From the IMG/VR virus record IMGVR_UViG_3300025598_000023, positions 47,325 to 111,324 of that record: a stretch of 64,000 nt of DNA; one strand, written 5' to 3'. Positions 1 through 64,000 of the stretch are shown in pieces. Every line of letters begins with the position of its first letter. Within the stretch, counting starts at the first letter, position 1. The notes beneath the pieces are model-generated. The model was given only the letters and a program-made list of their open reading frames with translations. It ran no database searches and was not told the DNA's origin. Both the position numbers and the translations under genes were made by a program. The stretch comes from a virus.

Positions 1-3000
1 GCACCTACTGCAACTATTAGTAGCACAAGTGGCAGCGGTGCTATTCTTACACCTGTACTCTACAATGCAAACATTGCAATTGTTTATGAAAGCCATTGGA
101 CAGAGACAAATAGAATTGTCACTGATGACCCACAAGTCGGTGGTTTTGGAACAAGTGTAAGCACAAACTATGATGGCAGTGTTGTTGTAATTGGTGCAGC
201 TAATAGCAGTGCAACATTTAGTTCAACATATAACAATGCAGGTAAAACTTATATCTATGACCGCACTGCGGAAGTATTTGTTGCTGATGGTGCTACAACC
301 ACATTCCAATTAAGCAATGCATTAGCTAATTTAACAACTATTACTACACCTACTCTTACTACAAATCCAACTATATTTGTAGATGGTGTAATTGCACAAC
401 CCACAGTCAATTATAGCACAAATTCAATTACTTTTGGTAATGCGCCTGCACGTGGTAGCACTATCACTGTTCAGACAAACCAATTCATTAATACTAAAAT
501 TGGCACAACTGATGTTGGACAACAAAATAGCAATTATGGAACTGCTGTTAAAATTAGTAGCGATGGTAGCAGTGTGTTCTCATCAGCTACTGGTTATGGT
601 TTAAGTTCAAGTCAGAATGGTGTTGTTTTCTATCTGCTTAACATACCACAAAAGTATGGCACTGCAATAGGTAGTAAATCAAACTTTACAATGACAGCTA
701 ACAATGCTGTGCGTATAAATGACCAATTAGTTACATTTACTGGTGGTAGTGTAACACAAACTGTCAATGATATCAATGCGGCAAATATTCCACATGTTAC
801 TGCTTCTGTATTGTCTAACAATGCAATCTCAATCACTACAACTGATGTTAACAGTGCAGCAAAATTGCGTCTGCGCAATGAAGTAGGTGATCCATTAAAC
901 ACTATGGGTATTGTTCAATGGCACACAATTCAACGTTTGAACAACCCTATTGCACAAGACACAGCACACTTTGGTGAAATCTTAAGTTTAAGTCCAGATG
1001 GCAATAGTTTGGTTGTTGGCAGCACATTAAGTAACACCAAAGCAAAAACAACATTTGATAACAATACTACAACATTTGATATCAATAATATCAAATTTAT
1101 TGATACAGTGTATCGCAGTGGTGCTGCACACATCTATGAATACCAAACACTAAGTGATGAAAACTATTCAAGCTATGGAAGTTATGCATATGGAACATTA
1201 ATTAATGACCAATTTGCAAACAGCTTTGACCGTTATTCAACTGGTGTTGATATTAGCGATAACTTTATTTTAGTTGGTGCTCCACAAGCAAAAATACTTG
1301 GAAACCAAACAGGCGCACTATATGTCTATTACAATCCTAATGCTCAACCAATTTGGCAAAGCATACGCAGCGGTGGTGTAGATTATGATAGTCGTAAGAT
1401 TGACCGTGCTTACATTTATAATAGCACAACTGCAAAACTTATTGCAGATTTGCCAGTTTATGATTTAACAAATGGCTATTTGCCAAATGAAAGTGAGACA
1501 TATCTTGATTTTGTTATCAACTATGATCCAGCAGTTTATAACAAGGTTCCAACTACAATTAGCTTTAACTATGATCGTAAAAATGCTTGGGGCAAAGAAA
1601 AAGTTGGAAAACTTTGGTGGGATATTAATAGTATAAAATACTATGACAACACACAAGGCTCTACACTTGATAGATTTAACTATTGGGGATTAGCTTTTCC
1701 AGCAAGCACAGTTAATGTGTATGAATGGATTGAAAGTAGTGTTCCGCCAAGTCAATATGTTGGCTCAAGTGCAAACAATACTCCACTTTACACTATTAAT
1801 GAAGTGTATAGTTCACATGTAGAGATTGATAGTGCAACTGGTTTGGCTGTTACAAAGTATTACTTCTGGGTAAAAAATAGCACACTAAGTTCTGGTTCAC
1901 GACCAAGTGCATTGGAAATTCAAGGTCAAATCAGCCTACCTCGTGCAAGCAGTGAACCATTTGCAGCAGTAATATCACCAAATGCAATTGCACTATTCAA
2001 TGCTAAAAATCTAATCAGCATTGATACCAATATGGTTATTGAATATAAAGATGTTCTGAAACCACAGCTAACTCATGCCGAATGGACTATGTTTGATGAT
2101 GGCACAGATTTAGGTGTGGCATATGAGTTCTTGAATAAACTTAATGATAGTCTAACTGGTCAAGATAGTAGCGGTAGAATTGTTCCTGATCCAAAACTTC
2201 CTATTGGTCAACGTTATGGCATGGATGTAAAACTACGTCAAAGTTTATTCAAAGATCAATATACTGGACGCAAGCTGTTTGTTGAAAATGTAAATCAAGT
2301 TTGCACAACATATCCAATGGTTCTTACTCGTGGAGCAGCAATTGCAGCATTGGACAGTTATGATCCAATTCCAGATTCAACTCATTATAAAACTGTAGTA
2401 GCTAATATTACTGAATTGGGTTATCTTGATACCAATACATATCTTGCTGGTGACCAAGTTCTTGTTTTAAGCGATAGCAACAGCTATAATAACGGTTGGA
2501 GTTTATATAGACTAAATGTTGTATTCCCTAATACTAGAACATGGGAAATTATACAAGTTCAAACTTATAACTTAAACAATTATTGGAGTTATGCTGATTG
2601 GTATAGCAATCAATATAATCCACAAGCACAACCAAAATATACTGTTACAACAGAAAATGATATTAGCAATTTACAACTTAATGTTGGTGATATCATTTAT
2701 GTTACTAACAGTTCTAATGGAGGTTGGAAACTTGTTCTTGTGACAATTAATAGTCTAGAACTATTAGCTCAGCAAAATGCTACAATACAATTTAATACTA
2801 ATTTGTATGATCTAGTTGCTGCAAACCAAGGATTCCAAACAAGTAGTTTCCAAAGTGTTGGATTTGATAGCGATAGCAATTTAGAATTTAATAAAATATT
2901 CAATATTATTCGTGATGAATTATTAATCAATGAATATCGCAGCAACTTTAAAGATTTAGTAAAACTCATGATTGATACGATTGCTACACAGCATCAGCAA

Positions 3001-6000
3001 ACAGATTGGTTAATGAAGACCAGTCTAGTTGATTTGTATCATCGTGTTCGTGGTTTGGATCAATTACCAGTTTACCTTCCACAGCCAGAAACTACTGTCA
3101 CAAGTTTCTTTAGTGAAGTAAAACCATATCACACTAAGCTAAAACAATATATTGCAACATATGATAATACTGATTCTATTGATGTTGCATACAACAATGT
3201 AACTGATTTTGATTTACAACCATATAAAAACAGTGTTGTAAACAAATATCGCAGTCCACAATTAGGCAATAGCTTGGATACTAACGCTTTAGAAACACAA
3301 AGTGTTTATCAACCATGGCTAAACAACCATTCTTATGGCGTTAAACGTGTTGATACAGTCACTGGCGGAGTTGGTTATGATGCAAATACCACAGTAACTA
3401 TTGTTGGTGATGGCACTGGTGCAACAGCACAAGCGTATGTTGTCAATGGCAGTGTTTACACAATTACTGTTACTAATAGCGGTGTAGGCTACACTTATGC
3501 AAAAGCATATATTTTTGGTGTTGGAACTGGTGCAACAGCTACTGTGATTCTTGGCAATGGATTGGCTCGTACAACAAACACAATTATTAAGTATGACCGA
3601 TATACATATTTTAATAATATTCAAGATTGGGCTGCTAATACTTCCTATACTGTAAACACGGTAGTAGTGTATAATGCTCAACCATACCGTGTTATTACTG
3701 CTCATACAAGCGGAACTACATTTGATTCAACTAAGTTTGTGCAACTTGTAGTAAAAGTTTGGTATCCAGAAACACAATATGCACTCAATGATGTAGTCAT
3801 TTATAAAAATACAAGTTATACAGTCAATGAAACATTTACAAGTGCTCTTACATTTGATACAGCCAATTTGACAGCGTATAACGGTCTATGGCTTGATAAT
3901 GCATGTGACCGTGTTTGGGCATACTATGCCCCAAAAAGCGGTATGGCTGGTCGCGATTTAGCGCAAGTTATGACTGGAATGGAGTATAGTGGCAATCAAA
4001 TTATTGGTCCTAACTTTAATCAAACACCAGGTTATGATGTAAACAATTACGACTACATAGCTTATGATTATGAAACATTTAACGTAGAAAATGTTGCAGA
4101 CGTTTATGGTTCACAAGCAGAAGACACATACATTCAAAGTTTGTTTACTGACACTGGTTTAGGATTGCGACCAGAAGATATTAATATTGTTGGCGGTGAT
4201 TTCTATGATGCTTACAGCAGCCATGCACCAGAAGAATTTGTGCCTGGTCAAGTATTAGATACACTTGATATTAAAGTAACTACCACTCCTATTGCAAATG
4301 GCGGACCAGATATTAAAATCTTTACTGTAAATTATCAAGGTTTAAAAACATTTAGTTTTGATAAAGCAATAACTGGTGTTGACTATCCAGTTGGTGGTAT
4401 TGAAAAGTTTTATATCGTTGACCATTTACAAGGTCCACTTGCTGAATCTGTTAATTATAGTGTAAACTGGCAAAATAAAACTATCAGTCTAAACTACACA
4501 CCACAGAGCGGAACTTATTTTTATTCCATGATGATTGGCTCAAACGGTGTAAATCCAGTATATGATCAAGATTATTATGGTGATGGTGTTCAAACTGATT
4601 TTGCTGTAAACGGTTGGACTCTAAACACAGTTAAGCAAGCATATGTTAAAGTAAATGGTATAGCTGTATCTAATTGGAGTTTAGTGAATATTACACAGAA
4701 TGGTGTTGGAACTCTGGCAGTTCGTTTTGCAACACCTCCACATGTTAATGATTATATTCAAGTTCATTTATATAATGTTGCACTTGGAACTCGTGCGTAT
4801 AGCGAATGGTATGAGCAAACATTTACTGTGCCAAATGCAAGTTATCCAAGTGGATATAATTTTACTTTAGCCAATCCAGAAATATACTCACAGCCAATCT
4901 CTGCTTATGCTATTGTAAGATTGAATAATAGTGACTTATTACCACCACAACAAAGTTATTATATTGGGGATGGTATCACAACAAACTATAGTTTAACAAA
5001 CAGTTGGACAGAAACAATTGCAAATATTGTTGATACAGAAATTATGGTTTTGGTTAATAAGGTTCTACTTACACGTAATATTGATTACACTGTGTATCAT
5101 GATCCACTTAATATTGCAACACCTGTAATACAATTCACAACTGCACCAGCAAGCGGAACTTCAATTGTAATAAGTGATGCAAGCCAATGTGATTTTAGAA
5201 TTTATGATGGAAATCAACTTTGGATTAGCCAAAACGTTGTAATACCACAAAATAGTGTAATTACTGTTTTATCTCAAGGCAATCACGATGCAAATAATCA
5301 ATATACCAAGTTGTTTAGTGGTAGCACAAGCAATAATAGCTTCTTGGATAACGGTTTAGATAGTGGTGGATTTGATGCTCTTGGTTTTGATAATGAACTT
5401 TCTAATTTGATTGGACAAGTTTACTATACATTGCCTACTGCTGTATCAAATATAAATCAAATCTATATAACTTTGAAAACACCTAATACAACTGGTGGTA
5501 AACCATTGTTACCATATACAGATTATGTGTTAGTAAACCCAACAACTATCGTATTAAGTAGCACACTTAATATCAGTGGCGCAAGTGTTATTGCGGTTCG
5601 TATTTTTGGTAATCCAATACGTGAACATAACGTAGAATTTAGAATATTCAAAGATATGCGTGATACTACTCGTTATTATGCGGTGAAAAATAATAAAACA
5701 ATTCTGTCTGCAAATTTAATGCCAAGCGACAGTTGGGTTTATGTTGAAAACGTGGATGTATTACAGAATCCAGAACCATCAACAAATACTGCTGGTGTTG
5801 TTATTATTAATGGTGAACGTATTACATATGGCGTTATTGACACTATAAACAAGCGTTTAGGAAACTTGCGCCGTGGCACGGCTGGCACAGGATTGTATAA
5901 TAACCATGTTGCTGGCAGTGTTGTATATGATAGTGGCAACTTATTAGAAATTCCAAATAGTCGTGAAACTTACACAGTGGCAACTAACCCAACATATATA

Positions 6001-6129
6001 ACAAATGGAAACATTTCACTTTATGTTGCTGCCAATAGCACAATACGACAAAGCCACATGTTTGTAAATTTGGGTGAAAGTATTCAAACAAGTAACACAC
6101 CATATGCACAATTTATTAGGGCACAGTAA
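1..6129 (+). CDS. Giant virion structural protein (baseplate wedge/tail-associated), 5'-truncated by the window
   Basis: Frame 1 is open from base 1 (APTATISSTSGSGAIL...), so the track start at 574 is internal. FG-GAP-like repeats (GFGTSVSTNYDGSVVVIGA, HFGEILSLSPDGNSLVVGS), CBM5/12-like WAANTSY/WYPETQY motifs and GDG-x-T-x-F repeats. Precedes tail fibre genes. Confidence 0.7.
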   Translation, partial: APTATISSTSGSGAILTPVLYNANIAIVYESHWTETNRIVTDDPQVGGFGTSVSTNYDGSVVVIGAANSSATFSSTYNNAGKTYIYDRTAEVFVADGATTTFQLSNALANLTTITTPTLTTNPTIFVDGVIAQPTVNYSTNSITFGNAPARGSTITVQTNQFINTKIGTTDVGQQNSNYGTAVKISSDGSSVFSSATGYGLSSSQNGVVFYLLNIPQKYGTAIGSKSNFTMTANNAVRINDQLVTFTGGSVTQTVNDINAANIPHVTASVLSNNAISITTTDVNSAAKLRLRNEVGDPLNTMGIVQWHTIQRLNNPIAQDTAHFGEILSLSPDGNSLVVGSTLSNTKAKTTFDNNTTTFDINNIKFIDTVYRSGAAHIYEYQTLSDENYSSYGSYAYGTLINDQFANSFDRYSTGVDISDNFILVGAPQAKILGNQTGALYVYYNPNAQPIWQSIRSGGVDYDSRKIDRAYIYNSTTAKLIADLPVYDLTNGYLPNESETYLDFVINYDPAVYNKVPTTISFNYDRKNAWGKEKVGKLWWDINSIKYYDNTQGSTLDRFNYWGLAFPASTVNVYEWIESSVPPSQYVGSSANNTPLYTINEVYSSHVEIDSATGLAVTKYYFWVKNSTLSSGSRPSALEIQGQISLPRASSEPFAAVISPNAIALFNAKNLISIDTNMVIEYKDVLKPQLTHAEWTMFDDGTDLGVAYEFLNKLNDSLTGQDSSGRIVPDPKLPIGQRYGMDVKLRQSLFKDQYTGRKLFVENVNQVCTTYPMVLTRGAAIAALDSYDPIPDSTHYKTVVANITELGYLDTNTYLAGDQVLVLSDSNSYNNGWSLYRLNVVFPNTRTWEIIQVQTYNLNNYWSYADWYSNQYNPQAQPKYTVTTENDISNLQLNVGDIIYVTNSSNGGWKLVLVTINSLELLAQQNATIQFNTNLYDLVAANQGFQTSSFQSVGFDSDSNLEFNKIFNIIRDELLINEYRSNFKDLVKLMIDTIATQHQQTDWLMKTSLVDLYHRVRGLDQLPVYLPQPETTVTSFFSEVKPYHTKLKQYIATYDNTDSIDVAYNNVTDFDLQPYKNSVVNKYRSPQLGNSLDTNALETQSVYQPWLNNHSYGVKRVDTVTGGVGYDANTTVTIVGDGTGATAQAYVVNGSVYTITVTNSGVGYTYAKAYIFGVGTGATATVILGNGLARTTNTIIKYDRYTYFNNIQDWAANTSYTVNTVVVYNAQPYRVITAHTSGTTFDSTKFVQLVVKVWYPETQYALNDVVIYKNTSYTVNETFTSALTFDTANLTAYNGLWLDNACDRVWAYYAPKSGMAGRDLAQVMTGMEYSGNQIIGPNFNQTPGYDVNNYDYIAYDYETFNVENVADVYGSQAEDTYIQSLFTDTGLGLRPEDINIVGGDFYDAYSSHAPEEFVPGQVLDTLDIKVTTTPIANGGPDIKIFTVNYQGLKTFSFDKAITGVDYPVGGIEKFYIVDHLQGPLAESVNYSVNWQNKTISLNYTPQSGTYFYSMMIGSNGVNPVYDQDYYGDGVQTDFAVNGWTLNTVKQAYVKVNGIAVSNWSLVNITQNGVGTLAVRFATPPHVNDYIQVHLYNVALGTRAYSEWYEQTFTVPNASYPSGYNFTLANPEIYSQPISAYAIVRLNNSDLLPPQQSYYIGDGITTNYSLTNSWTETIANIVDTEIMVLVNKVLLTRNIDYTVYHDPLNIATPVIQFTTAPASGTSIVISDASQCDFRIYDGNQLWISQNVVIPQNSVITVLSQGNHDANNQYTKLFSGSTSNNSFLDNGLDSGGFDALGFDNELSNLIGQVYYTLPTAVSNINQIYITLKTPNTTGGKPLLPYTDYVLVNPTTIVLSSTLNISGASVIAVRIFGNPIREHNVEFRIFKDMRDTTRYYAVKNNKTILSANLMPSDSWVYVENVDVLQNPEPSTNTAGVVIINGERITYGVIDTINKRLGNLRRGTAGTGLYNNHVAGSVVYDSGNLLEIPNSRETYTVATNPTYITNGNISLYVAANSTIRQSHMFVNLGESIQTSNTPYAQFIRAQ

Positions 6130-49206: not shown

Positions 49207-49659
49207 TCATTTTGTTGTTACTATTGCTTTAAGTGCTTGATATTCATTATATGCATCACGCAGTTCTTTATCAATATTCATTTCCCATTTTTTACGAGCA
49301 GCTTCATATTTTTCATACGCATCTGCTAATATAGGAAACTCGCCGTGTAATTCATCGTTTTTTGTAATTAAACAAATTGCTTCGCATACATTTTCATAAA
49401 AGTTATCAAGATTTATTTTATTGTGATTTGTGTTAATAAGTGCATCGGCGTTATCTCGTGGTGTAATGTCCAAACTATTAGAAGTAATTGCAACCGTAGG
49501 AGATTGTTGAACACTCCAACCAGAGGTAGTTAATATAGAACCACTACCGCCACCGCCACCACCAACTGTATTGATTGTATATGTTGTAGTTGAACCTGTT
49601 GCACCAATTGCGGGTGCGTATGTAGTTTTAGACGGACTTTGGACGATGTTGACGGTCAT
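49207..49659 (-). CDS. Hypothetical protein
   Basis: 150 aa; Thr/Gly-rich N-terminus, FPILADAYEKY tail. Confidence 0.55.
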   Translation of the reverse strand: MTVNIVQSPSKTTYAPAIGATGSTTTYTINTVGGGGGGSGSILTTSGWSVQQSPTVAITSNSLDITPRDNADALINTNHNKINLDNFYENVCEAICLITKNDELHGEFPILADAYEKYEAARKKWEMNIDKELRDAYNEYQALKAIVTTK

Positions 49660-49981
49660 GCTTCAATTTAGCAGCAAAAGCATCAGGAGTCAATTTATAT
49701 TTCTTAATAAAAGCATTATGCAAATCTTTTGGATCAATTTGGAAAGCACCACAAATACTACGCATTACATCATCAATACTAACATAATCAATATGTTCCA
49801 TGCCATCTAAATTATCTGCAAGTCTTGCAACAGCATTGTCCATATTGGTGCTTTCTGCACTATCAATTATTTTATTATATTTCCAACGTGCAGCCATTAG
49901 TCCACGTGCACCAGCACTGATTGGATGACGACCTTGAATACCTACACTCATTGCTGCTTCAAGTATTTCTTTAATACGCAT
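49628..49981 (-). CDS. Putative internal head protein
   Basis: N-terminus MRIKEILEA; TAAATA 5 nt upstream (49987-49992). Confidence 0.55.
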   Translation of the reverse strand: MRIKEILEAAMSVGIQGRHPISAGARGLMAARWKYNKIIDSAESTNMDNAVARLADNLDGMEHIDYVSIDDVMRSICGAFQIDPKDLHNAFIKKYKLTPDAFAAKLKHDRQHRPKSV

Positions 49982-49985
49982 AAGA

Positions 49986-51083
49986 TTATTTATCGGTTAC
50001 TGACCACACTTCTGGTGGAAATAATATACTGCTATCAGTATTCCTGTAACTATCTAATTTCTTTAATCTTAAAATTGCTTGTTCAAGTTGTTTTTTGTTG
50101 CTTGGTTGTTGTAATTCATTTATAAGATAAGAAAAATTAGGAATGGTATTCAAGTCATCAATTAATTTTTCCTTGACAGATTCTGGTAAATTTCTTGCTG
50201 TATAATAAGATGGATTTATTACCAAGTTTGGAACAATTTCACAATTAAAGCGTTTTTTCAAAATTTCAAAATCTTCTTTTGTGTTATATGCGTTTAGTAA
50301 ACTATAAGTGTAGATTATATAAAGATTTGCATTTGGTATTAATTTTAGTCTATTAAAATTTTGTAAAGTAGTGTCCCAAGAAGCTGGCCATCGTATGGTT
50401 GCAAATCTTTCATAAACTCCATCAATACTAAATCCAATATTAACTGATTTAAATTTAATTAATTTGTTAACAATACTTTCATTTAATACTGTTCCATTAC
50501 TAAAAAAATGCAAATCAATTTGTTCACTAAAATTATTATCGACTGCCCATGATAGTATTTTTTCTACCTTTTTACTATACATGGGTTCACCACCATAAAT
50601 TGTAAGTTTCTCTATATTTTTCCAAATTTCGTTTAATAAAATTTGGTCAATATCGTTGTTAATTTTATTTTTAGATGGGTCATGTTCACCCATTCTTTTT
50701 AATTCGGCAGACCATCTTGTGCTGCTATCACTAAAACATGTGATACAAGCAATATTGCAATTATTATCAACTCTAATTTCTAAATTTTTTAATTGGAATT
50801 TATTTTCTAAAAATAATTCATAGTCAAAATCATCATAACTTGATTTAAAATTTAATCTATGACTTTTTGTATTTCCATCTTGTTCAGTTTTTTTGCAATT
50901 ATAACAACCAGGGTGCCATTTGTTATCTTTGATGTATTCTCTAACCTCTGAATTTGCAGTTTGAATATCAGTAAAATTTTTGTTAAAATTTGGTAAGAAG
51001 TAACAACATGGTTTTACTTTATTAGAATCAAACACCAAATCAGTGAATGGTCTTAAGCAAAACGTATCAGTAAATTGTGTCAT
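49986..51083 (-). CDS. Radical SAM protein with N-terminal twitch domain (AT-rich)
   Basis: CLRPF..KPCC..GCYNC; CNIACITC; YGGEP; FSIDG. Confidence 0.85.
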   Translation of the reverse strand: MTQFTDTFCLRPFTDLVFDSNKVKPCCYFLPNFNKNFTDIQTANSEVREYIKDNKWHPGCYNCKKTEQDGNTKSHRLNFKSSYDDFDYELFLENKFQLKNLEIRVDNNCNIACITCFSDSSTRWSAELKRMGEHDPSKNKINNDIDQILLNEIWKNIEKLTIYGGEPMYSKKVEKILSWAVDNNFSEQIDLHFFSNGTVLNESIVNKLIKFKSVNIGFSIDGVYERFATIRWPASWDTTLQNFNRLKLIPNANLYIIYTYSLLNAYNTKEDFEILKKRFNCEIVPNLVINPSYYTARNLPESVKEKLIDDLNTIPNFSYLINELQQPSNKKQLEQAILRLKKLDSYRNTDSSILFPPEVWSVTDK

Positions 51084-51289
51084 ACCTTGCCGTTTGGATT
51101 TAAAATTGGTGGACGACCAAGTTTATCAGTTTTATTGCCAAATTTAGCAGCTTGCTTTTGTGTTTCACCTGGATGAATATCAACAGTTAGCGCATTAGCA
51201 TAACGTGGGTCACGTGCCATCTTTTTATTAGCAGGCACTACGCCTACACCAGCCGCTTCATCAAGGTCAAATAATTCAGTTAGTAACAT
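51080..51289 (-). CDS. Putative internal head protein
   Basis: MLLTELFDLDEAAGVG. Confidence 0.55.
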   Translation of the reverse strand: MLLTELFDLDEAAGVGVVPANKKMARDPRYANALTVDIHPGETQKQAAKFGNKTDKLGRPPILNPNGKV

Positions 51290-51294
51290 TCATA

Positions 51295-52236
51295 TCACCA
51301 CTTACGGCAAGACCAGTATCTTGCCTTTGTGCGTGGACCTGGATTTTCACAGTGATGTCTTGCACGGAAACTCTTGCGACGTTTTGGATTGCTTTTCTTA
51401 ATGCGCATATTAGGATCACCAAAGTTTACTTTCTTTACATTGCCAGTCTTTGGGTCTTTAACAAATACTTTAAATTTTTTTACATCGCCTCGCATTGGTT
51501 TACCAAGTGGAACTTTGCGACCATGATATTCTGCTTCTGATACCATTTCTTCATAAAGGTCATCCATAAAAAAACGAATCTCTCTGCCACCCTTATTCAA
51601 TACAATATCATCATCGTCTTCGGCAATATCCCAACCCATGTTGCTTAACATTTTGGATGCTTGAGCATGTTTTGCTTCATCACCATGCCACCACATTTTT
51701 GCTAATCGCTTTAAACTTTGTGGGTTGTCGTGCAGTGATACTACTTCACCTTCACTTACGTTACTTGAACTTGCAATAACACGGTCTGCTGCTTGGTTTA
51801 TTTCATCACGTGTTGCACGATATGGACTTACTTTAAGAACTGCAATTTGTTGGTATGCTGGTGTCGCTTCGTCATCAGTTTTGACCATTTTCTTTAATAA
51901 AACATGATCTACTTTACGACTATCACCATCATCATGTGTGTTTGTTGCAATAAAGTAATCATCACGATAATGCATTACATTATTGTTGCCACCAAAATCT
52001 CGTGCTCGCCAAAGTTTTGCTTCGGTTAAATTTTTGTTTTCAATTTCATTTAGACTTTCTAAAACTTTAAAAAGTTTTTCATCACCAAGTAGAGTAATGC
52101 TGTCACCAGTCATTTCCATAATTTCTGTATCTACCTGAAGTATATTACCAAATTCAAGATAAAAACCATCGCCAACTGTTGGACGATCTTCGCTAATGGC
52201 GGTAAGTTTTTCAATTAGGGAACGCATATCACTCAT
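51295..52236 (-). CDS. Putative modular internal head protein
   Basis: C-terminal EAEYHGRKVPLGKP...KVNFGD...SFRARHHC...ARYWSC module; TAAATA at 52253-52258. Confidence 0.65.
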   Translation of the reverse strand: MSDMRSLIEKLTAISEDRPTVGDGFYLEFGNILQVDTEIMEMTGDSITLLGDEKLFKVLESLNEIENKNLTEAKLWRARDFGGNNNVMHYRDDYFIATNTHDDGDSRKVDHVLLKKMVKTDDEATPAYQQIAVLKVSPYRATRDEINQAADRVIASSSNVSEGEVVSLHDNPQSLKRLAKMWWHGDEAKHAQASKMLSNMGWDIAEDDDDIVLNKGGREIRFFMDDLYEEMVSEAEYHGRKVPLGKPMRGDVKKFKVFVKDPKTGNVKKVNFGDPNMRIKKSNPKRRKSFRARHHCENPGPRTKARYWSCRKW

Positions 52237-52266
52237 GATTAAATCCTCTTATTATTTAGTGGATTA

Positions 52267-52761
52267 TCACTTCTTTTTTGCGAATGTCTTTACATAAATT
52301 GGCTTCTTGCCGCTTCCGCCAGTATCTTTGCCACCACGACCAGCAGCATTTTGTGCTTTGCGCTTGCGGGTAACTGCACTCTTTTTCTGTGCAGCAGTCA
52401 TTCTACGTGCCTTCGCTGCTGGCACACATTTGGCATAACCACGCTTGCTGCCACTTGTTCCGCAAGGTGGATGTTTGCCTTTTACTTTTTTACCAATATT
52501 AACCCATTTATCAGTAAACCACTTATGAAGATTACTGCTCGCTTCGCCTAAAATTTCTGGAATAATTAAGTTACCACAATTTACACAATAATCAAGATTT
52601 TCTAAAATATTTTGTTCTGTAATTGGTTCGCAAATAATATCTGTGCTTTCGGTTTTCTTATTCTTGACACAGTTTGGATATGTCTTGCCAAACATTTTTT
52701 TGTTACCTTCTTTGTGGTAACCTTTCCAACATGCTTCGCCAAGAACATCTTCCATCTTCAT
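52267..52761 (-). CDS. Putative internal head protein (basic, Cys-containing)
   Basis: MKMEDVLGEA; CWKGY...PNCVK; LHKWFTDKWV..PCG...KCVP. Confidence 0.65.
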   Translation of the reverse strand: MKMEDVLGEACWKGYHKEGNKKMFGKTYPNCVKNKKTESTDIICEPITEQNILENLDYCVNCGNLIIPEILGEASSNLHKWFTDKWVNIGKKVKGKHPPCGTSGSKRGYAKCVPAAKARRMTAAQKKSAVTRKRKAQNAAGRGGKDTGGSGKKPIYVKTFAKKK

Positions 52762-53435
52762 TTGGATTTATTGCCCCAATTCTTTGCGCCTGCTTTGCGG
52801 CACTTAACTAGCGCACCACTTGCATATGCACTTGGCCATACTTTATAACGGCTCTTTACTTTATAATAGCAAGCATCTTTCTTTTCATCTACTCGTGATT
52901 CTGGTAACATTAAGCCACCACAATGTGGGCAACTTTCTTCTACGTTGTCATGTGCAGCAGCCCCAACGATTTCATCATAATTTTCCATGCAAAGATAATC
53001 GTGATGTTTAGACAATTCAATCATCTTTTCAGCAACATCATGCAAATCTTCGTCGGTCTTTGCATCTTCACGAGCATATTCCATCATACGAAGCAGTAAT
53101 GGAATATCCATACTGACTGTATCAGTGGCATCTGCTTCTGGAATCATTTCAACATTTTCAGTTGAAGAAATTTTAGGTTTACGAATAGCACTGCCTGGTA
53201 AAATTTTATCCATGGCTAAATCAATGCCAGCACGTTGTTTTTTAGTTTTGCCAGCGGGATTTGCAGTTAAAACATTTGGATTGCGAGCAAGACGTTTGCC
53301 AACATATGATTTTAATGTATTTGTTTTCAATTCGTCAACGTGTTTTGGCTTTTTACCGCGCTTCTTCATATTAATAGCAATCGCTGCTTGTTGCGCTGGA
53401 CTACTTGCTTCTAAAATAATATCTTTGATTTTCAT
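52758..53435 (-). CDS. Putative modular internal head protein
   Basis: MKIKDIILEA; AQQAAIAI; MDIPLLLRMMEYAREDA; KKDACYYKVKSRYKVWPSAYASGALVKCRK. Confidence 0.65.
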   Translation of the reverse strand: MKIKDIILEASSPAQQAAIAINMKKRGKKPKHVDELKTNTLKSYVGKRLARNPNVLTANPAGKTKKQRAGIDLAMDKILPGSAIRKPKISSTENVEMIPEADATDTVSMDIPLLLRMMEYAREDAKTDEDLHDVAEKMIELSKHHDYLCMENYDEIVGAAAHDNVEESCPHCGGLMLPESRVDEKKDACYYKVKSRYKVWPSAYASGALVKCRKAGAKNWGNKSK

Positions 53436-55577: not shown

Positions 55578-55617
55578 TTGACAGACTGGGTAATTGTGGT
55601 AATATAAGGTATAAATA
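55578..55617 (+). promoter_or_regulatory. sigma70-type promoter plus perfect T4-type late box (rightward)
   Basis: TTGACA-N16-TAATAT (55578-55605) followed by TATAAATA (55610-55617); SD GGAG. Confidence 0.65.
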
Positions 55618-56178: not shown

Positions 56179-56952
56179 TTATTTTTCGGCTTTTCTTTTT
56201 GCCCACCATGCCTTTATTCTGATACTCTGTTCTTCTGCATACTTTGTATCATTTTTTCTATTTTCAGAAAACTGTTTTCTTTTTTCTTTTCGTTCTGGTG
56301 TATTTGCCGCTTTTTTTTGTCTCTCAATTCTAATTTGTTTTTGCTCTTCGGTTTCATTTTGATAGTATTTTTTTATTTTTGCACTGCATTTTTCTGAAAA
56401 TTCTGCATTGTTTTTCTTTTTATTATTATTTTTTTGTGTTTTTTCTAACCATTGCTGGTCTTGTGATCTTTTTTGTGCAGCAAGAAGTATTTTTTCATAA
56501 TATTCTATATCTGTTTCATATTTTAATTTTATTGCGTTGCTTGTTTTAATTTTATTATTTTCATTAGAATAATATTCCGTTAACTTGTCTGATAGTTTTT
56601 TACTTCTTTTTGGATCATTATATATTTTTCTTTTTTCAAGGTCTGTTTTAAATTTATTTGTTGCGCCGCCATCTCCACCATTTGCAATATTCATACATAA
56701 AAAATTATCTTTTATTTTGTGTTCATTTATTACTATTGTTTCAAAAACATCCGCTTCTTTTTCATTATTACATATATGAATAGTTTCTCTTTCAAACTGT
56801 TCTATACCATATTTTTTTATAGCTCTACGTAATAAAAGACCACTTCCCAAATACCCATCAAATGCATGTGGATCATCTAATAAATTTAAATGTTTTCCAA
56901 TATAATATTTTCCGTTAATTTTATTTGTTGTTTTGTATATAATCCAAATCAT
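56179..56952 (-). mobile_element. Free-standing GIY-YIG (Seg-like) homing endonuclease
   Basis: IIYKTTNKINGKYYIGKH...YLGSG...E...NIANGGDGG plus Lys-rich tail. ATG at 56952, 5 nt after TAAATA. Very AT-rich. Confidence 0.8.
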
Positions 56953-56956
56953 AAAG

Positions 56957-57127
56957 TTATTTATCAAAAAACTTTATTCGGCGTTCTACTTTTTTAACCC
57001 ATTCTTTGCTTGGATGACCACTACCACGATAATATTGCAGCACTTTTTTAGGGTTGGACTTGCTAACTAAAGCCCAACGACCCTTTACTTTTTTAAGCGT
57101 TTCACTTATAAACTCATGCGCTCGCAT
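56957..57127 (-). CDS. 56-aa putative internal head protein (not in ORF track)
   Basis: MRAHEFISETLKKVKGRWALVSKSNPKKVLQYYRGSGHPSKEWVKKVERRIKFFDK; SD AAAGGTGA. Confidence 0.6.
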   Translation of the reverse strand: MRAHEFISETLKKVKGRWALVSKSNPKKVLQYYRGSGHPSKEWVKKVERRIKFFDK

Positions 57128-57138
57128 TTATATCACCT

Positions 57139-60100
57139 TTAAACTTCACGAATAAAATATATTCCTCGTTCATAACCATTTCTTAATGTATCATCAAGAC
57201 CTTGTTCTTTATAATATTGTAATAATAGTTCATATGCTTCTGTAGGTGTAGCCGCACCAACATCCATAATTGGTGAAGTGCCATTAAAAGTTGTGTACAA
57301 TCTAAACACCTTTGGTGCAGTAGGACTACCAATACGGTTTAGAATTTCATCATTTGGTTGTGGTTTTGGTTGTGGTTGTGGTTTTGGTTTTCTAACACCT
57401 GCTGCGTATTCTTGTGGTGTCCATAATTCAAAATCACCATGATTGTATTCTATGCTACGTGCTATTCTGTAATAATTTTGCTTTAGTTTTGTTATAGCAT
57501 CATCATAACTATTAGCACGAACACGCAAGTATACCCATCTGTTAGCTGTGCTTATTACATAAAACTCTTGTTTGCCTGAACCTATTACGTGAGCAAGATT
57601 TATATCTTGTTTGCCCAAATTAGGAACACCATAGCCAGTTCCAACACCTTCTAATCTGCGAGTACCACGATAGATTAGCATAGTGTTATCATGCGCTGCT
57701 GCATATTGTGTTGCAATTTCTATAACTTGTTGTAGCGTGTATTTTGCTGGATCAAACATACCAATTACATGGTCGTTGTAATCTTCAATACGATATGCAA
57801 ATGCTTCATATGTTAATTTGGCAGATGGTTTAAAATCTAATTTTTCTGCTTCAATCTTATTGATTTCTCTTGCAATAGCAGCAATACTACTATTAAAATA
57901 ATCATATGTGCTTAAATTTACAGCATTTCGCTGCTCTTTAGTCATATTAGGTATAAAATAATTTTCTATAGCACTTTCTGCTTCTTCTCTACTATATGTT
58001 TTAGGTAGCAACATTACTGTTTCTGGGTAGTATCTGCTTGTTCCTGTTGATAGAGTCATTGTTGCATGCCAAACAGAATAAAACGGCCAATTAAACACAT
58101 AATTGCTTGGGTTTTGATTACGTTCACGTAACCAATCATTTGCAAGTTTAACTATTTCATTTATTCCTTCGCCACGAACTTCTACAACACTATCGCCATC
58201 ATTTGATTCAATATTGGCTACAATTTTACCCTGACCAATTGGTTTTACAGGCTCACGTTTCTTTTGTGCAGCAGTTACTTGTGCAATCAATTCATCTTTG
58301 CTGATGCCACCAGCAACATATTTTGCAAAAATATCAACTGTGCTTGTAGGTTGTTTAATGCTATCTACAATAAGTTTATAAAACTTTTTAGCATATTCTT
58401 GTTTGCTATCTTCTGGGTCAGCAGCAGCAGCCATTGCACGAACATAACGCAACATAGTATTGCGTATTTCATCATATTGTTCAAAGTAATTGCCACCAGC
58501 ACTGCGGAACTCAATATAGTTAGACTTGATATTCACGCTTACATAACGGTCGCCACGTGTGCCACTAATAATTTTGTTTATTTCTTTATTAGTTTGGTCA
58601 AGTAAACCAACACGTGCATCATCCAATATTTGTGGTAGCGTCTTGCGGAAATCACGCATTTCTGTTGCTTTCTTGGCTTGGTCAAGCATACTTTTAGTCC
58701 AACGGCTGTTTAGACGACCAAAACGTTCTAATACATATTTGTCACCAAGCAACAACACAAGTTTAAGGTGATTTATGTTTTCCATAGTTTGTTCTGGAAT
58801 ACTAACGCCAATATGGAAACCAGTTGTTCTATTGGTATAATAACCATTACTTTTTGCCCATTTAAACACGGTTTGAAGCGCAGCAAGACCATCATCAAGC
58901 AGCATAGGTGGTGATACAAGTTCAATGCCACCATCTTCATCATCATTTGGACTATCAAGTGAACTATCTGGTTCAAATATCCAAGTGCTTTCATCACGTG
59001 ATGCATTATGATAGCCACTGCTTGCTCGTGCTTTATAACCAGTTGTGCGTCTAAAATCATCTACAACATCACCAATATCTGTTGTTGGTTCTCTACTGCT
59101 GGTATATGTATAATACGGCCATGACAGTGATTCACGAGTATTGCGATTTACCCAACGCATAAAGTCATACATATCATCAATGCTATTGCGACTTATGAAA
59201 TTACGCCAAACTTCATCTTCGTTGTTTTCCATCCAAGCGGTGCGAACATTATCTTTGGCATCATCAAGTTCACTTTCACTTGCTTCATCCATAGGCGTGT
59301 CGCCTAATTCTTCTTGAACCTCTGCTTTCCAATCTGTAGTATTTTCATAATTCTCGTCATAAAACTCATATTGGTATTCACTAAATGCTTCATAAAAAGA
59401 TTCTAATGCACTTTCAACCTCACGACGAGTATTGATTCCATTACCGCCAGTAAAGAAGTTCATAACATCACGTTGACGATCACGATAGGATGCACTGCTT
59501 GGAAACTCTTCGTTGGCATCCATATCCTCTTCTTCTTCCTCTTCGCCTTCTTCACCGCCAAGACCAGGAATATACATTTCGGTTTCAAAACCAACCTTCA
59601 TGCTCTTTGCAAATGGTGTATCAGCAAACTTTTCAAGAGATGTAGGACTCATATTGATTTCATTGAGGATACTTTCTTCAATGCTTTCGTTGCGAGGAGC
59701 AAGTTGAACTTCATAACTCTCATCACCAAGATGTTCGTTTGACCAAGATTCAGCATAGCGTTCAGCACCACGAGGTGATGCTGCACGGAACTCATGGACT
59801 ACACCGCCTCTGGCAATAATTTGATATTTTACACCTTCGGCAGCAGTGATATTAGTTTGCTGTCTTGGGATAGCATTGCCCGCAATATCATAACCACGAT
59901 CAATTTCTATTTGTGAATATTGGCGTGGTTGTTCTGGTTGTGGTCTTGGTTGAGGAATTGTTTGACCTTGTGTATCCCATAAATTATCATTGTTGGGTGA
60001 TCTTATAGCAATAGTTGCTAATGGAAGACCACGCTCTTGCGCAAATCTTTGTGCTGCTTGACTTGCTTGGTAAAAACTGCGTGCTTGTGTTGCTAATAAT

Positions 60101-63100
60101 TCTGTGCCATCGCTGCGATTTACAACAACATATGTTCCACCAACATTACCAGATTGTGTTTGTGCTTGTGTGCCAGCACCAGCAATAGGTGTCATTGTAT
60201 CATCATTTGCTAATGTCAAGTACCAAGAGTCTTGATTATAACCATATTCACTTGTTAATCGATTAGCCGTTTGAAGAGCATAATTTACATGTCTTTCACG
60301 GAACTGTGCTATTGCAGTATTATCGCTTGCTTTACGGATAACATATAATTCACCATTACCAGGTATTCCAACTGTGCGTGTTTCTTCACCAGTGGTAATA
60401 TTATAATAGTGTTTAACACCCATATAATCTTGGCGCAGTTCTACACGACCATTGGAAATATCGTGTTGATGCAACCAACGATCTGCTAAATCACGTGCAT
60501 CATTAAGATTATCCGCACGAATTTTTTTGAATTCTATATCTGTATTATAAAAAACTATTGTATATTCATTAGAACCGCTACCAAGTGCTTGTTCATCACC
60601 AGTAAAACTAATTGGCGGCAATGTTGGCACAAGATTACCTGTAACTGCACGTGTTTTTACACGAACCAATCGTGTATCGCCAAAACGATAACCATTATAA
60701 TCTGCCCAATCACGTGCGGTTTTATAAGCAGCGTATGGATCATTACTATAAAAAGTATGGACCGTTTTGCCAGCCACACGATCCATAATTTGATATTCTT
60801 CTGTGCTTGGATTTTTACCACGACTAATATCACGCTTTGCTTGGACATTGCGAATTTGTGATAGCAGTGCTGCTTTTGGTATAGTGCCGCTTACATATTG
60901 TGAGAAGTATTTGATTGTATCTGTATCTTCTTTTTTAGCACCGCTTGCTAAAAGTTTATAAAACTTTTTAGCATATTCTTCTTTTTCTGCTTCTGGATCA
61001 AGTGCTATGCTTAACGCATAAACCGTGCGATAAAGTGTATTGATAACCGCATCTAAATCCATATCTAACCAATTACCACCAGGACTGCGTATTTCTATAC
61101 GATTATCTTTGGTGTTGATACTTGTAAACTTGTCAGTATATGTATCATGGATAATTTTACTTACTGTGCGATTTAAGTTAGAACGCATAAGTGATAATGC
61201 TTGTTCTGCTTTGGTAGGATCACGCTTAATAACATTTTCAATATTATCAAGTGCGCTCTTTGTATAGGTATTACCCAAACGACCAAAAGTATCTAATACA
61301 TACTTGTCGCCTAAAAATAATGCCATCTTTACATAATCAAGATTTTGTAAATTATAACCTGGTAAACTTACATTCATATGCAAGCCAGTAGTTCTGTTGG
61401 TATAGGCATTACCTTCTTTTGCCCATGCTGCTACTTTCTTAATAACATCAACCATATCAGGTATTTTAAGTGCTGGTGCAACAAACTCCCAACCTTCACC
61501 GCCACGACCACTACTTGCGTGTAGACTGCTATCAGGTTCTACTTTAAAGTATCCAGCTTTTTGGGCTTGTGCGTGATAACCGCCGCTAACTTGAACTGGA
61601 TAACCAACTGCCTGTCTAAAACTTTCTGCTGGTGGACCATTGCCTCTTGATGGACGATTATCATAATCTGGTTCTGTCCAATATGGCCAATTTAAATCAT
61701 AATTATTTGAAAAATTACTAAAATAACTACCGCCAGTAGTATCATCAAGAAAATCTTCTATTGGATCGCCATTTTCTTCATAATTTTCAAGCCAATCATC
61801 ATAATGTGATTTTTTAAATGCAGCATATGTATCTAGCGGTGGCAATTCAGGAAATAGTTCAGTTTGGTTTGCAATATCACGACCATATGTTTTGTCTAAC
61901 CATTGTTGATATCGTGTATCGGTTTGGCCGCTTTCAGGACTGTTAGCCCATGTATCAAACCTAATAGGCAACCATTCATCATAGTCTTCTCTTGCTCTTT
62001 CCAATGCAGATCGAACATCGCGGCGACTATTATGATCGCCATAGAAGAAATCCATGATTTCACGTTCAAAATCTTGCCAATCACTTGCCCTTACGTAGCC
62101 ATCATAACCAGCATAGTCTGGTTCGCTTTCAAAGTCCTCATATGGATCATAATCATCATCATCCGCATCTTCAAACTCGGTAACGATAAGTTCAAACTCT
62201 AAACCAGCCTTTGCAAGTGGTAATTTATCAACTGCACTTTTAAGCGCACTTGGACTCATATTCACTTCATTAAGTAGTTCTTCGGTAATTATATTGCTAT
62301 CACCTACTTCAATACCTTCAAGCCATGGAATCTTTGGACTGCTTGGTTCACCCATCATATGTTTATCCCAAGGAAATACACCAGTTTTACGGTCGGTTAG
62401 CACAGCACCGCCTCCAACAGTTCCTAAAATACTATTTGCATGTTCAATTTTTTGTTCTGGACCAAACTTCTTAATGAATTTTGCTTTGTCTTTTGGCATT
62501 TCGTAGTCCAGTGAAATTTGGTTATCAATTTTCCCACTCTCATCAGTTATTACATCAACTGCAATATGCTTGAATCCAAGTGCAGTTTGTGCATATACAC
62601 GATACATCTTTTTAAGATCATCCAAGAAACCTTGAACAAAAAATGTGAGAGTTGCTTTTGCAAAACGCACATATCCAAGTTTAAATGCTTCTTCATAACC
62701 ATCAATGTTTTTACTATAAAGCCACCCCAGATGTTCTTCTTTCGTAACATAAACAACTTTACGATCAGGCAATATCCAACCATGTGTTTCATTTGGATCA
62801 AGTGCTTCTTCAACACTTTCTTTCTGCTGTGCTTCTGCATCCCACTTCTTGTGCAAGAATGTCAGTAAACCCTTTACATCATTGGCACCAATCTTGCGCA
62901 TAGCAGCGATAATTTTAGTTGCCGCTTCATAACCACTGTTTCCTGGTTTACGAGCATTGGTAATTTCATTGCGTAGTCCAAGGTCATCAGCAAACTGACC
63001 ACCATTCCAATAGGTCAAACTATAACGCAGTTTATTTGCTTCTTTGGATAACTCACTGCGGCTCTTCTTAAAGATGAGTTCTAACCAAGGTTCAAGATAT

Positions 63101-64000
63101 TTCTTGCCATTGTAAGTGCTGATATAACCAGTCTTCTTTTGTCCACGTAGTAAATCTTGCGCTTTACTTACTGGTATTGCTCGCTTGGTATCTTGTAACT
63201 TCCACGCATTTTCATCACTATAAAGATAAGTTGGTAAACCACGCTTCTTTGCGGTCAACATCAACTGACGAGTAGTTGGACTTGCAAACTCACCTGCTTC
63301 TTTAAGCAAGATATGAATTGCTGTAATAGCATCTGCTGGTATAGTTGGCTCACGTGAGAATACACGGTCTTCACTTTCACTGTGCTTTTGCTTATCAAAT
63401 CCTGCCCAATAATCAATAGCCTTTACTAGATAACGACGATTGAACCAGTTGCCATCAAGGTTAAACATAACGGCAGTGCCGCCAGTAAACTCGTGATAAC
63501 CACCTACCTTGCTACGTGTTGTGGATAAGAAATAGTTGTAACCTTTCGGTGCATACTGGTCTTCTACACTACCAGTAGAAATGCTCAACATAAACTCATT
63601 GTTTTTAAGAATGTTTAATGCTGCACCCACGGAACCTGTATAATGGAACAACACTGGTGATGCTGCTTCGTCAAGTTCTGTTTCTTCTAAATCTTTACGA
63701 TGACTGCGCTTGTAATATGAACACCAACCATTTGCCGCAATCTTGCCACTAACAGCCGAACAACCGTGCGGTGGACGCCACATAGTGCAGTGGTCACAAC
63801 GCTGACCATCGTGTGGCATATCTTGATACTTTGCAACTGCTTTGGTTGACTTTTCTGCTGCTTCATTCGTTCTATACTTTGGTAAACCATATAAGTCTAA
63901 ATCAACACCGTGAGTTGAACCATAATCTGTATTATCTACATTAGGTTCATATGGCTTACGACCAAGTTTCACAAGTTTTGGGTTATCACCCCAATCACCG
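57139..64000 (-). CDS. Giant modular protein: HiPIP domain, unknown domains, two putative amidoligase domains and repeats; start lies beyond the window
   Basis: Frame open to the window edge (..GDWGDNPKLVKLG). CxxC..C..GWC HiPIP motif. Two copies of GxExE..EPDSSL..E[F/L]V.P..TNRTTG.H..V..IE.RS.GG. Confidence 0.75.
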   Translation of the reverse strand, partial: GDWGDNPKLVKLGRKPYEPNVDNTDYGSTHGVDLDLYGLPKYRTNEAAEKSTKAVAKYQDMPHDGQRCDHCTMWRPPHGCSAVSGKIAANGWCSYYKRSHRKDLEETELDEAASPVLFHYTGSVGAALNILKNNEFMLSISTGSVEDQYAPKGYNYFLSTTRSKVGGYHEFTGGTAVMFNLDGNWFNRRYLVKAIDYWAGFDKQKHSESEDRVFSREPTIPADAITAIHILLKEAGEFASPTTRQLMLTAKKRGLPTYLYSDENAWKLQDTKRAIPVSKAQDLLRGQKKTGYISTYNGKKYLEPWLELIFKKSRSELSKEANKLRYSLTYWNGGQFADDLGLRNEITNARKPGNSGYEAATKIIAAMRKIGANDVKGLLTFLHKKWDAEAQQKESVEEALDPNETHGWILPDRKVVYVTKEEHLGWLYSKNIDGYEEAFKLGYVRFAKATLTFFVQGFLDDLKKMYRVYAQTALGFKHIAVDVITDESGKIDNQISLDYEMPKDKAKFIKKFGPEQKIEHANSILGTVGGGAVLTDRKTGVFPWDKHMMGEPSSPKIPWLEGIEVGDSNIITEELLNEVNMSPSALKSAVDKLPLAKAGLEFELIVTEFEDADDDDYDPYEDFESEPDYAGYDGYVRASDWQDFEREIMDFFYGDHNSRRDVRSALERAREDYDEWLPIRFDTWANSPESGQTDTRYQQWLDKTYGRDIANQTELFPELPPLDTYAAFKKSHYDDWLENYEENGDPIEDFLDDTTGGSYFSNFSNNYDLNWPYWTEPDYDNRPSRGNGPPAESFRQAVGYPVQVSGGYHAQAQKAGYFKVEPDSSLHASSGRGGEGWEFVAPALKIPDMVDVIKKVAAWAKEGNAYTNRTTGLHMNVSLPGYNLQNLDYVKMALFLGDKYVLDTFGRLGNTYTKSALDNIENVIKRDPTKAEQALSLMRSNLNRTVSKIIHDTYTDKFTSINTKDNRIEIRSPGGNWLDMDLDAVINTLYRTVYALSIALDPEAEKEEYAKKFYKLLASGAKKEDTDTIKYFSQYVSGTIPKAALLSQIRNVQAKRDISRGKNPSTEEYQIMDRVAGKTVHTFYSNDPYAAYKTARDWADYNGYRFGDTRLVRVKTRAVTGNLVPTLPPISFTGDEQALGSGSNEYTIVFYNTDIEFKKIRADNLNDARDLADRWLHQHDISNGRVELRQDYMGVKHYYNITTGEETRTVGIPGNGELYVIRKASDNTAIAQFRERHVNYALQTANRLTSEYGYNQDSWYLTLANDDTMTPIAGAGTQAQTQSGNVGGTYVVVNRSDGTELLATQARSFYQASQAAQRFAQERGLPLATIAIRSPNNDNLWDTQGQTIPQPRPQPEQPRQYSQIEIDRGYDIAGNAIPRQQTNITAAEGVKYQIIARGGVVHEFRAASPRGAERYAESWSNEHLGDESYEVQLAPRNESIEESILNEINMSPTSLEKFADTPFAKSMKVGFETEMYIPGLGGEEGEEEEEEDMDANEEFPSSASYRDRQRDVMNFFTGGNGINTRREVESALESFYEAFSEYQYEFYDENYENTTDWKAEVQEELGDTPMDEASESELDDAKDNVRTAWMENNEDEVWRNFISRNSIDDMYDFMRWVNRNTRESLSWPYYTYTSSREPTTDIGDVVDDFRRTTGYKARASSGYHNASRDESTWIFEPDSSLDSPNDDEDGGIELVSPPMLLDDGLAALQTVFKWAKSNGYYTNRTTGFHIGVSIPEQTMENINHLKLVLLLGDKYVLERFGRLNSRWTKSMLDQAKKATEMRDFRKTLPQILDDARVGLLDQTNKEINKIISGTRGDRYVSVNIKSNYIEFRSAGGNYFEQYDEIRNTMLRYVRAMAAAADPEDSKQEYAKKFYKLIVDSIKQPTSTVDIFAKYVAGGISKDELIAQVTAAQKKREPVKPIGQGKIVANIESNDGDSVVEVRGEGINEIVKLANDWLRERNQNPSNYVFNWPFYSVWHATMTLSTGTSRYYPETVMLLPKTYSREEAESAIENYFIPNMTKEQRNAVNLSTYDYFNSSIAAIAREINKIEAEKLDFKPSAKLTYEAFAYRIEDYNDHVIGMFDPAKYTLQQVIEIATQYAAAHDNTMLIYRGTRRLEGVGTGYGVPNLGKQDINLAHVIGSGKQEFYVISTANRWVYLRVRANSYDDAITKLKQNYYRIARSIEYNHGDFELWTPQEYAAGVRKPKPQPQPKPQPNDEILNRIGSPTAPKVFRLYTTFNGTSPIMDVGAATPTEAYELLLQYYKEQGLDDTLRNGYERGIYFIREV

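Follow-up and report, generated by a model that had tools for sequence, protein, structure and literature searches.

In bacteriophage T4 cleavage by the prohead protease gp21 follows L/I-X-E. The internal proteins carry propeptides of 10-19 residues that serve as capsid-targeting sequences (CTSs) and are taken off by gp21 (PMC9026906, PMC3012670); the CTS has also been suggested as an evolutionary route by which T4-like phages load varied proteins (PMC9026906). In T4, processing is blocked when Asp replaces the Glu. For T4, tagging by a CTS and processing by gp21 are textbook knowledge, and polyvalent injected proteins have already been described. Here we report on a giant open reading frame (ORF) at the end of a 64,000-nucleotide stretch of a viral record in IMG/VR (IMGVR_UViG_3300025598_000023, positions 47,325 to 111,324; the whole stretch is referred to as the window), in which enzyme-like modules are separated by Glu-ending joints. 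Our analysis suggests that the product of the ORF is probably a polyvalent precursor of head cargo in a T4-type jumbo phage, and that its joints are predicted from their sequence to be cut by the S77 prohead protease.

IPI, IPII, IPIII and Alt of T4 likewise start with a short leader ending in L/I-x-E, often followed by Ala, and the leaders found here read MRAxEF[LI]xE and MR..E[FI]....LxE. Moreover, as in T4, the genome encodes a gp21-type S77 protease and unrelated cargo has only the leader in common (PMC9026906, PMC3012670), and T4 Alt is a head-packaged, gp21-processed ADP-ribosyltransferase (ART), the same fold as is predicted for one of the modules here (module A). In T4, however, each cargo protein is the product of a single gene and carries one propeptide at its N-terminus (in Alt there is another at the C-terminus), whereas here the precursor has at least 2286 residues and the motif is also present between its modules, usually in tandem, where it marks the points at which relatives fuse, split or swap; the cargo enzymes, i.e. 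amidoligases, a HiPIP-like domain and a Tpt1/DarT-like ART, differ as well. Polyvalent proteins are likewise very large with several unrelated and shuffled enzymatic domains, and their delivery together with the DNA has been proposed (Iyer et al. 2017, PMC5512222). The giant protein resembles them in having at least two unrelated effector-type domains in one polypeptide (HiPIP-like, ART, amidoligases and repeats) and in its shuffled architectures, but for polyvalent proteins processing by their own metallopeptidase domains was proposed and CTSs were not mentioned (PMC5512222), while the joints here match a separate head-maturation protease. Finally, the inner-body and ejection proteins of phiKZ, 201phi2-1 and SPN3US are also cut after Glu at a three-residue motif and have redundant propeptide sites (PMC9026906); there the motif is S/A-x-E, the protease is a diverged homologue (gp175/gp245-type), and the substrates lose propeptides and are not strings of swappable enzymes. 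Among the papers searched, none describes a cargo polyprotein whose modules are joined by sites for the prohead protease.

The window covers the final 64 kb of a contig of 111,324 bp, which is classed as linear with a CheckV completeness of 33%, which implies a genome of roughly 330 kb, and the source virus is an uncultured T4-type jumbo phage. The giant ORF is on the minus strand, comprises 2286 codons and, as stated in a preliminary description of the window, continues past the window, its 5' end being open; comparison with relatives puts the missing N-terminal part at about 335-390 residues. A T4-like head and tail module at the other contig end holds the gene for a Peptidase_S77 (gp21-type) prohead protease (91.9 bits vs. 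a Pfam cut-off of 27). The scaffold-like protein encoded beside it has 18 [LI]xE motifs compared to 6.8 expected, as would be anticipated for a gp21 substrate. The N-terminus of the S77 protease itself, MNNLLIE, resembles the LIE site near the N-terminus of T4 gp21.

All five Glu-ending joints quoted in the preliminary description are present in the translation, after residues 46, 111, 398, 578 and 1447 (Table 1; an arrow marks the predicted cut, and P1 and P3 are the first and third residues before it). At residues 111, 578 and 1447 a canonical L/I-x-E stands directly before the mature part, each time as a tandem pair, and ESILNE↓INMSP is retained in two-amidoligase orthologues. In total the giant protein has 12 [LI]xE motifs, compared to 21.5 ± 4.2 in shuffled sequences, and six of the 12 are the tandem pairs at these three joints.

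The same motif is found as an N-terminal leader in homologues. A search for amidoligase homologues among 1.8 billion representative proteins gave 972 clusters at E ≤ 1e-30, and the best 150 were inspected. An N-terminal leader, MR/MK..E[FIL]....[LI]xE (median 15 residues) followed by (I/V)NMSP, was seen in 83-85 of these best 150, and another 40-43, a diverse set of fused homologues (clustered at 50% identity or less), carry the motif internally. Leu or Ile occupies P3 in 99% of the N-terminal leaders and in 96% of the internal joints (126 amidoligase junctions), a second L-x-E is located five residues upstream in about half of the junctions, and in an 88-sequence amidoligase alignment P1 is Glu without exception and the Leu at P3 is at least 90% conserved, i.e. 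level with catalytic residues. For module A we found about 200 homologues; most of them stand alone and are about 290 residues long, and about 100 of the stand-alone proteins have a leader, either MRAxEF[LI]xE↓(A/S)AT or a 14-residue double version, while E111 is at least 90% conserved in an 87-sequence module-A alignment. Such N-terminal leaders, 9-16 residues long, are present on hundreds of stand-alone homologues, and their core, E-F-[IL]-x-E, matches the CTS of T4 IPIII, MKTYQEFIAE. On this match the leaders would have counterparts of the residues that matter in the T4 CTS for targeting (4 and 7) and for processing (8 and 10) (PMC9026906). That the same motif heads stand-alone homologues in the form of T4-CTS-like leaders, and that an S77 protease is encoded on the contig, agrees with the proposal in the preliminary description that the Glu joints are prohead-protease-like sites.

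Leader and protease also occur together. Of the phages that encode a module homologue, 11 that are cultured or complete were compared: an [LI]xE leader precedes the conserved domain start in 6/6 phages with an S77 protease (RsoM2USA, Atu_ph07, SCTP-2, Vibrio K566, Alishewanella Slickus01 and the uncultured LR756508), and in 0/5 phages without S77 (Dickeya JA13, Lu11, HRDY3, RHph_I42 and Sen-NF), the homologues of which start at the mature domain (e.g. MKPLYHFT and MILYHFT). Examples of leader starts are MKLIQKLSE↓LKMDMS in RsoM2USA gp26, ..KKLTE↓LKMNSS in Atu_ph07 AUZ94978 and MKKFNEFANELAE↓AV in Vibrio K566_0173. On two related contigs (fragments, 17-26% complete) no match to an S77 protease was found, which is uninformative.

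Comparison with ten related viral contigs (about 70% identical) provides insight into how the modules are exchanged. The two-amidoligase part is a separate gene in L005 and L008-L014, starting with MSDKDLILEEILNE↓VNMSP or MKNNKDLILEEILNE↓VNMSP, and the upstream part in these relatives is another giant gene of 1066-2115 codons. DNA alignment shows that in four relatives the place of the 578 joint is taken by a stop codon and a ribosome-binding site, with an ATG 13-16 nt after the stop, and that the next gene reads M..KDLILEEILNE↓VNMSP. Since these four relatives have an ordinary gene boundary at this position, the single ORF in the window is a lineage-specific fusion of two neighbouring cargo genes and does not represent a fixed design. 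The stop codon, spacer and ATG in the relatives, together with the origin of the contig in a metagenome assembly with an estimated completeness of 33%, might also suggest that the 2286-codon ORF is an assembly or sequencing artefact joining two naturally separate genes. We consider this very improbable, because the window differs from the relatives at 578 by many substitutions and indels, and not by one base, and the outcome is a well-formed tandem joint; moreover, the same kind of internal joint precedes an amidoligase in other relatives, e.g. L005, L013 and L014 (YVDDLDE↓VNMSP), and an artefact would touch only one of the five joints.

In the upstream gene whole modules have been gained or lost exactly between x-L-(D/E)-E motifs. 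Specifically, a module of approximately 72 residues between KYELDE↓ and NLDE↓AAEK in relatives is missing in the window, giving the hybrid YRTNE↓AAEK, while the HiPIP-like domain starts with AAEKSTKA after Glu in all five relatives compared (ATEKSTKA in one). Likewise, the bare tandem LEE↓TELDE↓ of the window corresponds in relatives to modules of 61-154 residues that are bounded by DL(D/E)E↓ and LDE↓AASP, and L014 is without most of module B (about 399-518), with the deletion beginning at the 398 joint. Among five related giant proteins, 21/33 indel breakpoint clusters are located within 8 residues of [LIV]xE compared to 18% for random positions. Among the extra parts in relatives are an N-terminal domain resembling a cytidylyltransferase and a weakly ParB_N-like segment, neither of which reaches its Pfam cut-off. 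Both the module shuffling that the preliminary description had foreseen in relatives and its placing of module boundaries at the joints are thus seen in the gene start at 578, in the gain and loss of modules and their breakpoints at the motif, and in the domain starts after E111 and E578.

With respect to these domain starts, the confident AlphaFold domains begin at residue 112 and at approximately 579-580, right after Glu, and the predicted local distance difference test (pLDDT) score is below 55 at the joints there and >90 from residue 112 in module A. According to the preliminary description, linkers within folded domains would speak against its proposal; joints 111 and 578 lie outside the confident domains. 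The model of module A matches Tpt1 (7yw4; Z 10.8, root-mean-square deviation 2.6, 114 aligned residues) and DarT (Z 8.6-9.8), the remaining top-50 structural matches are mostly ART-fold enzymes or toxins, and the best Foldseek matches are again DarT and Tpt1 (E about 1e-3). Module A is, according to its model, an ART-fold enzyme closest to Tpt1/DarT. Nearly invariant in this module are H119, Y120, S159, T160, R162, E208, E210, D211 and R212, which appear to resemble ART motifs. In the cultured phages L021 (Vibrio phage K566), L016 (Dickeya JA13) and L023 (Sen-NF) the module-A homologue adjoins an RNA ligase or DNA ligase gene, and this neighbourhood hints at a role in nucleic-acid repair or end modification.

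The model of amidoligase module 1 matches glutamine synthetases (GS; Z 9.3-11.2 over approximately 180-210 aligned residues) and also Dop/PafA and glutamate-cysteine ligases, and module 2 scores 47.9 bits against Pfam Amidoligase_2 (PF12224; cut-off 22), i.e. module 2 by score and module 1 by model belong to the GS-like carboxylate-amine ligase superfamily. Aligned over 551 residues the two modules share 33% identity, and the alignment sets in exactly with the joints ITEELLNE / IEESILNE. Compared with Amidoligase_2 at large, the subfamily here has a long insert, an invariant mature N-terminus, (I/V)-N-M-S-P, directly after the predicted cut site, and small repeat domains: in the AlphaFold model the tail of module 1 consists of five strand-strand-helix-strand domains, and similar units follow module 2. 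Matches of the repeat-domain fold to AcrIF9 (Z 5.0-5.4) and T7 Gp2 (Z 4.6) were weak and non-specific and were not interpreted. The HiPIP-like domain (PF01355) scores 20.9 bits in the window protein and 21.5-21.9 in relatives (cut-off 22); its four-Cys pattern, C-x2-C...C...GWC, is present and its AlphaFold model is of low confidence. For module B the pLDDT is about 30 for residues 515-571, and a protein-atlas search gave no usable match. No peptidase family in Pfam was matched at E ≤ 0.1 by the window protein or at E ≤ 0.01 by three orthologues, where module B and the small domains are without family assignment.

It could be argued that the giant protein is packaged via its N-terminal leader while the internal joints are uncut fossils of gene starts, such that the cargo stays one polyvalent protein. 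Position 578 has demonstrably served as a gene start, either formerly or as an alternative, the AlphaFold models show the joints as short helices of low confidence and not as long disordered loops, and the N4 virion RNA polymerase is an example of a polyvalent protein that is packaged without processing (PMC5512222). Fossils should, however, decay, whereas Leu/Ile is kept at P3 in 96% of 43 fused homologues together with the tandem second site; T4 gp21 needs little beyond L/I-x-E (PMC9026906), and joints exposed in a prohead would be hard to protect. We regard this explanation as unlikely.

Close to the giant ORF is a cluster of five genes whose products also have CTS-like starts (MRIKEILE↓AA, MLLTELFDLDE↓AA, MSDMRSLIE.., MKMEDVLGE↓A and MKIKDIILE↓ASSP). 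This cluster, noted already in the preliminary description, is real and conserved in relatives, and several members are small basic proteins. The small CTS-like proteins have basic C-terminal tails in common; two of them, with a weak match to DUF5872, finish in a ..SAYASGALVKCRKAGAKNWGNKSK-like sequence and one in ..RRKSFRARHHCENPGPRTKARYWSCRKW, and they could be DNA-binding internal proteins. In relatives the sole TATAAATA box, i.e. the T4 late-promoter box, in about 20 kb heads a block consisting of a DUF6267 gene and two giant genes. This hints at late expression of the giant block but does not prove it, because the box is only 4 nt from the ATG. The start of the DUF6267 protein, MFINQIISE↓AP, is another CTS-like leader. 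In the 64-kb window the box is found once, compared to about 10 expected, and outside the window it is also present 30 nt before the structural head and tail operon.

Several observations weigh against a head-cargo precursor. The giant gene sits among replication and nucleotide-metabolism genes (DNA polymerase, nucleotidase, radical-SAM enzymes and sugar enzymes), outside the head operon, and no T4-type late-promoter box precedes it within the window, its true promoter region being beyond the contig end. In relatives the N-terminus of the precursor reads MTLSHRTIFNE↓AP with Phe at P3, a loose CTS match, and in the window joints 46 (TNE) and 398 (VEE) depart from L/I-x-E, while the folded part of module B has no clear cut site at its end. 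The interiors of the modules have 6 [LI]xE motifs compared to 19.7 expected, which we had considered as a sign of protease exposure; across homologues the ratio is only 0.58-0.81, and since module-A homologues from protease-negative phages also show depletion (ratio 0.48) it is not specific and was demoted to weak evidence. Finally, the 6/6 vs. 0/5 split of leaders, which has a chance of about 1 in 460 if the phages are independent, comes from a small table in which some of the 11 phages are inter-related, and its true weight is lower.

The gene neighbourhood and the missing box, together with the lack of an adjacent structural gene and the repair-pathway-like position of module-A homologues beside ligase genes in cultured phages, would also fit a non-virion, cytoplasmic multi-enzyme protein in which the leader and joints have another role, e.g. 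as a flexible acidic linker, an assembly tag or sites of regulated proteolysis by another protease. The leader is, however, like the T4 CTS in its length, its cut rule and its core, E-F-[IL]-x-E; across phages it is found together with the S77 protease, and the same leader is present on many unrelated small basic proteins next door, as for the T4 internal proteins; moreover, there is the late-promoter box that heads the giant block in relatives. Taken together, we find the cytoplasmic explanation quite improbable.

Table 1. Coordinates of the giant ORF, its modules and joints, and of other features mentioned in the text (positions refer to the window unless another contig is given; residues are those of the giant ORF)
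Feature	Residues	Position	Strand	Remarks
Giant ORF		57139..63999	-	2286 codons + stop at 57139-57141; 5' end cut by contig end
Upstream module, tail	1-46	63862..63999	-	ends YRTNE
HiPIP-like four-Cys domain	47-111	63667..63861	-	PF01355; starts AAEKSTKA
Module A	112-398	62806..63666	-	predicted ART-fold domain ~112-270 + helical C-terminal part
Module B	399-578	62266..62805	-	poorly modelled
Amidoligase module 1	579-1447	59659..62265	-	predicted GS-like fold ~580-1060, then five small domains ~1067-1433
Amidoligase module 2	1448-2286	57142..59658	-	Pfam Amidoligase_2, then further small repeat domains
Joint YRTNE↓AAEK	46↓47		-	P3 = Thr, non-canonical
Joint LEETELDE↓AASP	104-111, cut 111↓112	63667..63690	-	tandem L-x-E pair
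Joint ESVEE↓ALD	398↓399		-	P3 = Val, non-canonical
Joint ITEELLNE↓VNMSP	571-578, cut 578↓579	62266..62289	-	tandem pair
Joint IEESILNE↓INMSP	1440-1447, cut 1447↓1448	59659..59682	-	tandem pair
Peptidase_S77 (gp21-type) gene		C1:7940-8566		match G000:C1:8078-8527
Scaffold-like protein gene		G000:C1:6827-7924	-	outside window
Five-gene CTS-like cluster		49628..53435	-	starts end in Glu, four then Ala
Small CTS-like proteins		51295-53435	-	
TATAAATA box in window		55610-55617	+	
TATAAATA box before head and tail operon		G000:C1:13906-13913	-	
TATAAATA box in relatives		L008:3143-3150, L005:678-685, L013:189-196		4 nt from ATG
DUF6267 gene upstream of giants in relatives		L008:3155-4282, L005:690-1817, L013:201-1328		starts MFINQIISE↓AP
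GIY-YIG homing-endonuclease-like gene		56179-56967	-	
4665-codon ORF		1-6129	+	continues from G000:C1:39456

Directly downstream of the giant ORF is a GIY-YIG homing-endonuclease-like gene, which is consistent with a mobile insertion, as relatives hold different genes at this position. Another very long ORF (4665 codons) starts outside the window, after baseplate and tail genes, and ends before fibre-like genes. Joining the contig ends (window 63999 to G000:C1:1-540) was considered as a way to regain the N-terminus of the giant ORF; it leaves the frame open for 179 more codons, into a LamG/concanavalin-like ORF starting MVTIVGPG. This join was rejected as a coincidence because the record is linear and 33% complete and because the relatives read ...TEAPGIG before GDWGDNP and not the wrap sequence, and the open frame is most likely a 1-in-3 frame coincidence. 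A nucleotide search of a phage collection with 24 kb of the window gave no match.

The present analysis shows the motif with its conservation, the boundaries between modules, their shuffling, a gene for the protease and the joint occurrence of leader and protease, and each of these computational tests agrees with the preliminary description. From this we infer that the giant protein is present in the prohead, is cut there and that the pieces are injected. In such a scheme the complete precursor would be drawn into the prohead scaffolding core by its N-terminal leader, and the prohead protease would cut after the Glu of each joint, with the tandem sites as redundancy. The products would be a small HiPIP-like protein, an ART-fold enzyme, module B and two amidoligases of roughly 95 kDa each with small repeat domains, which may remain with the DNA and pass into the host cell upon infection, like T4 Alt and the internal proteins. 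With the same joint on every module, genes could fuse, split and swap modules while delivery is kept, which would account for the cassette-like differences between the relatives.

In more general terms, one short peptide may act as capsid address, protease cut site and recombination joint in T4-type jumbo phages, constituting a general and evolvable injection cassette system represented by hundreds of metagenome clusters, with a nucleic-acid-type ART, two amidoligases and a small iron-sulfur protein as cargo in the present case; for this wider proposal we consider the chances to be evenly balanced. If true, protein delivery by T4-type phages would extend far beyond Alt and the handful of internal proteins known from T4, and large uncultured phages would carry enzyme kits that act before phage gene expression and are rebuilt by recombination at a universal joint. 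It would also provide a simple sequence rule by which virion cargo and mature N-termini could be predicted in metagenomes, i.e. the presence of both an MR..E[FIL]..[LI]xE leader and an S77 protease, and it names the Tpt1/DarT-like ART and the amidoligases as candidate early effectors. Moreover, these natural leaders and joints might be of use for loading several proteins into T4-type capsid delivery vehicles.

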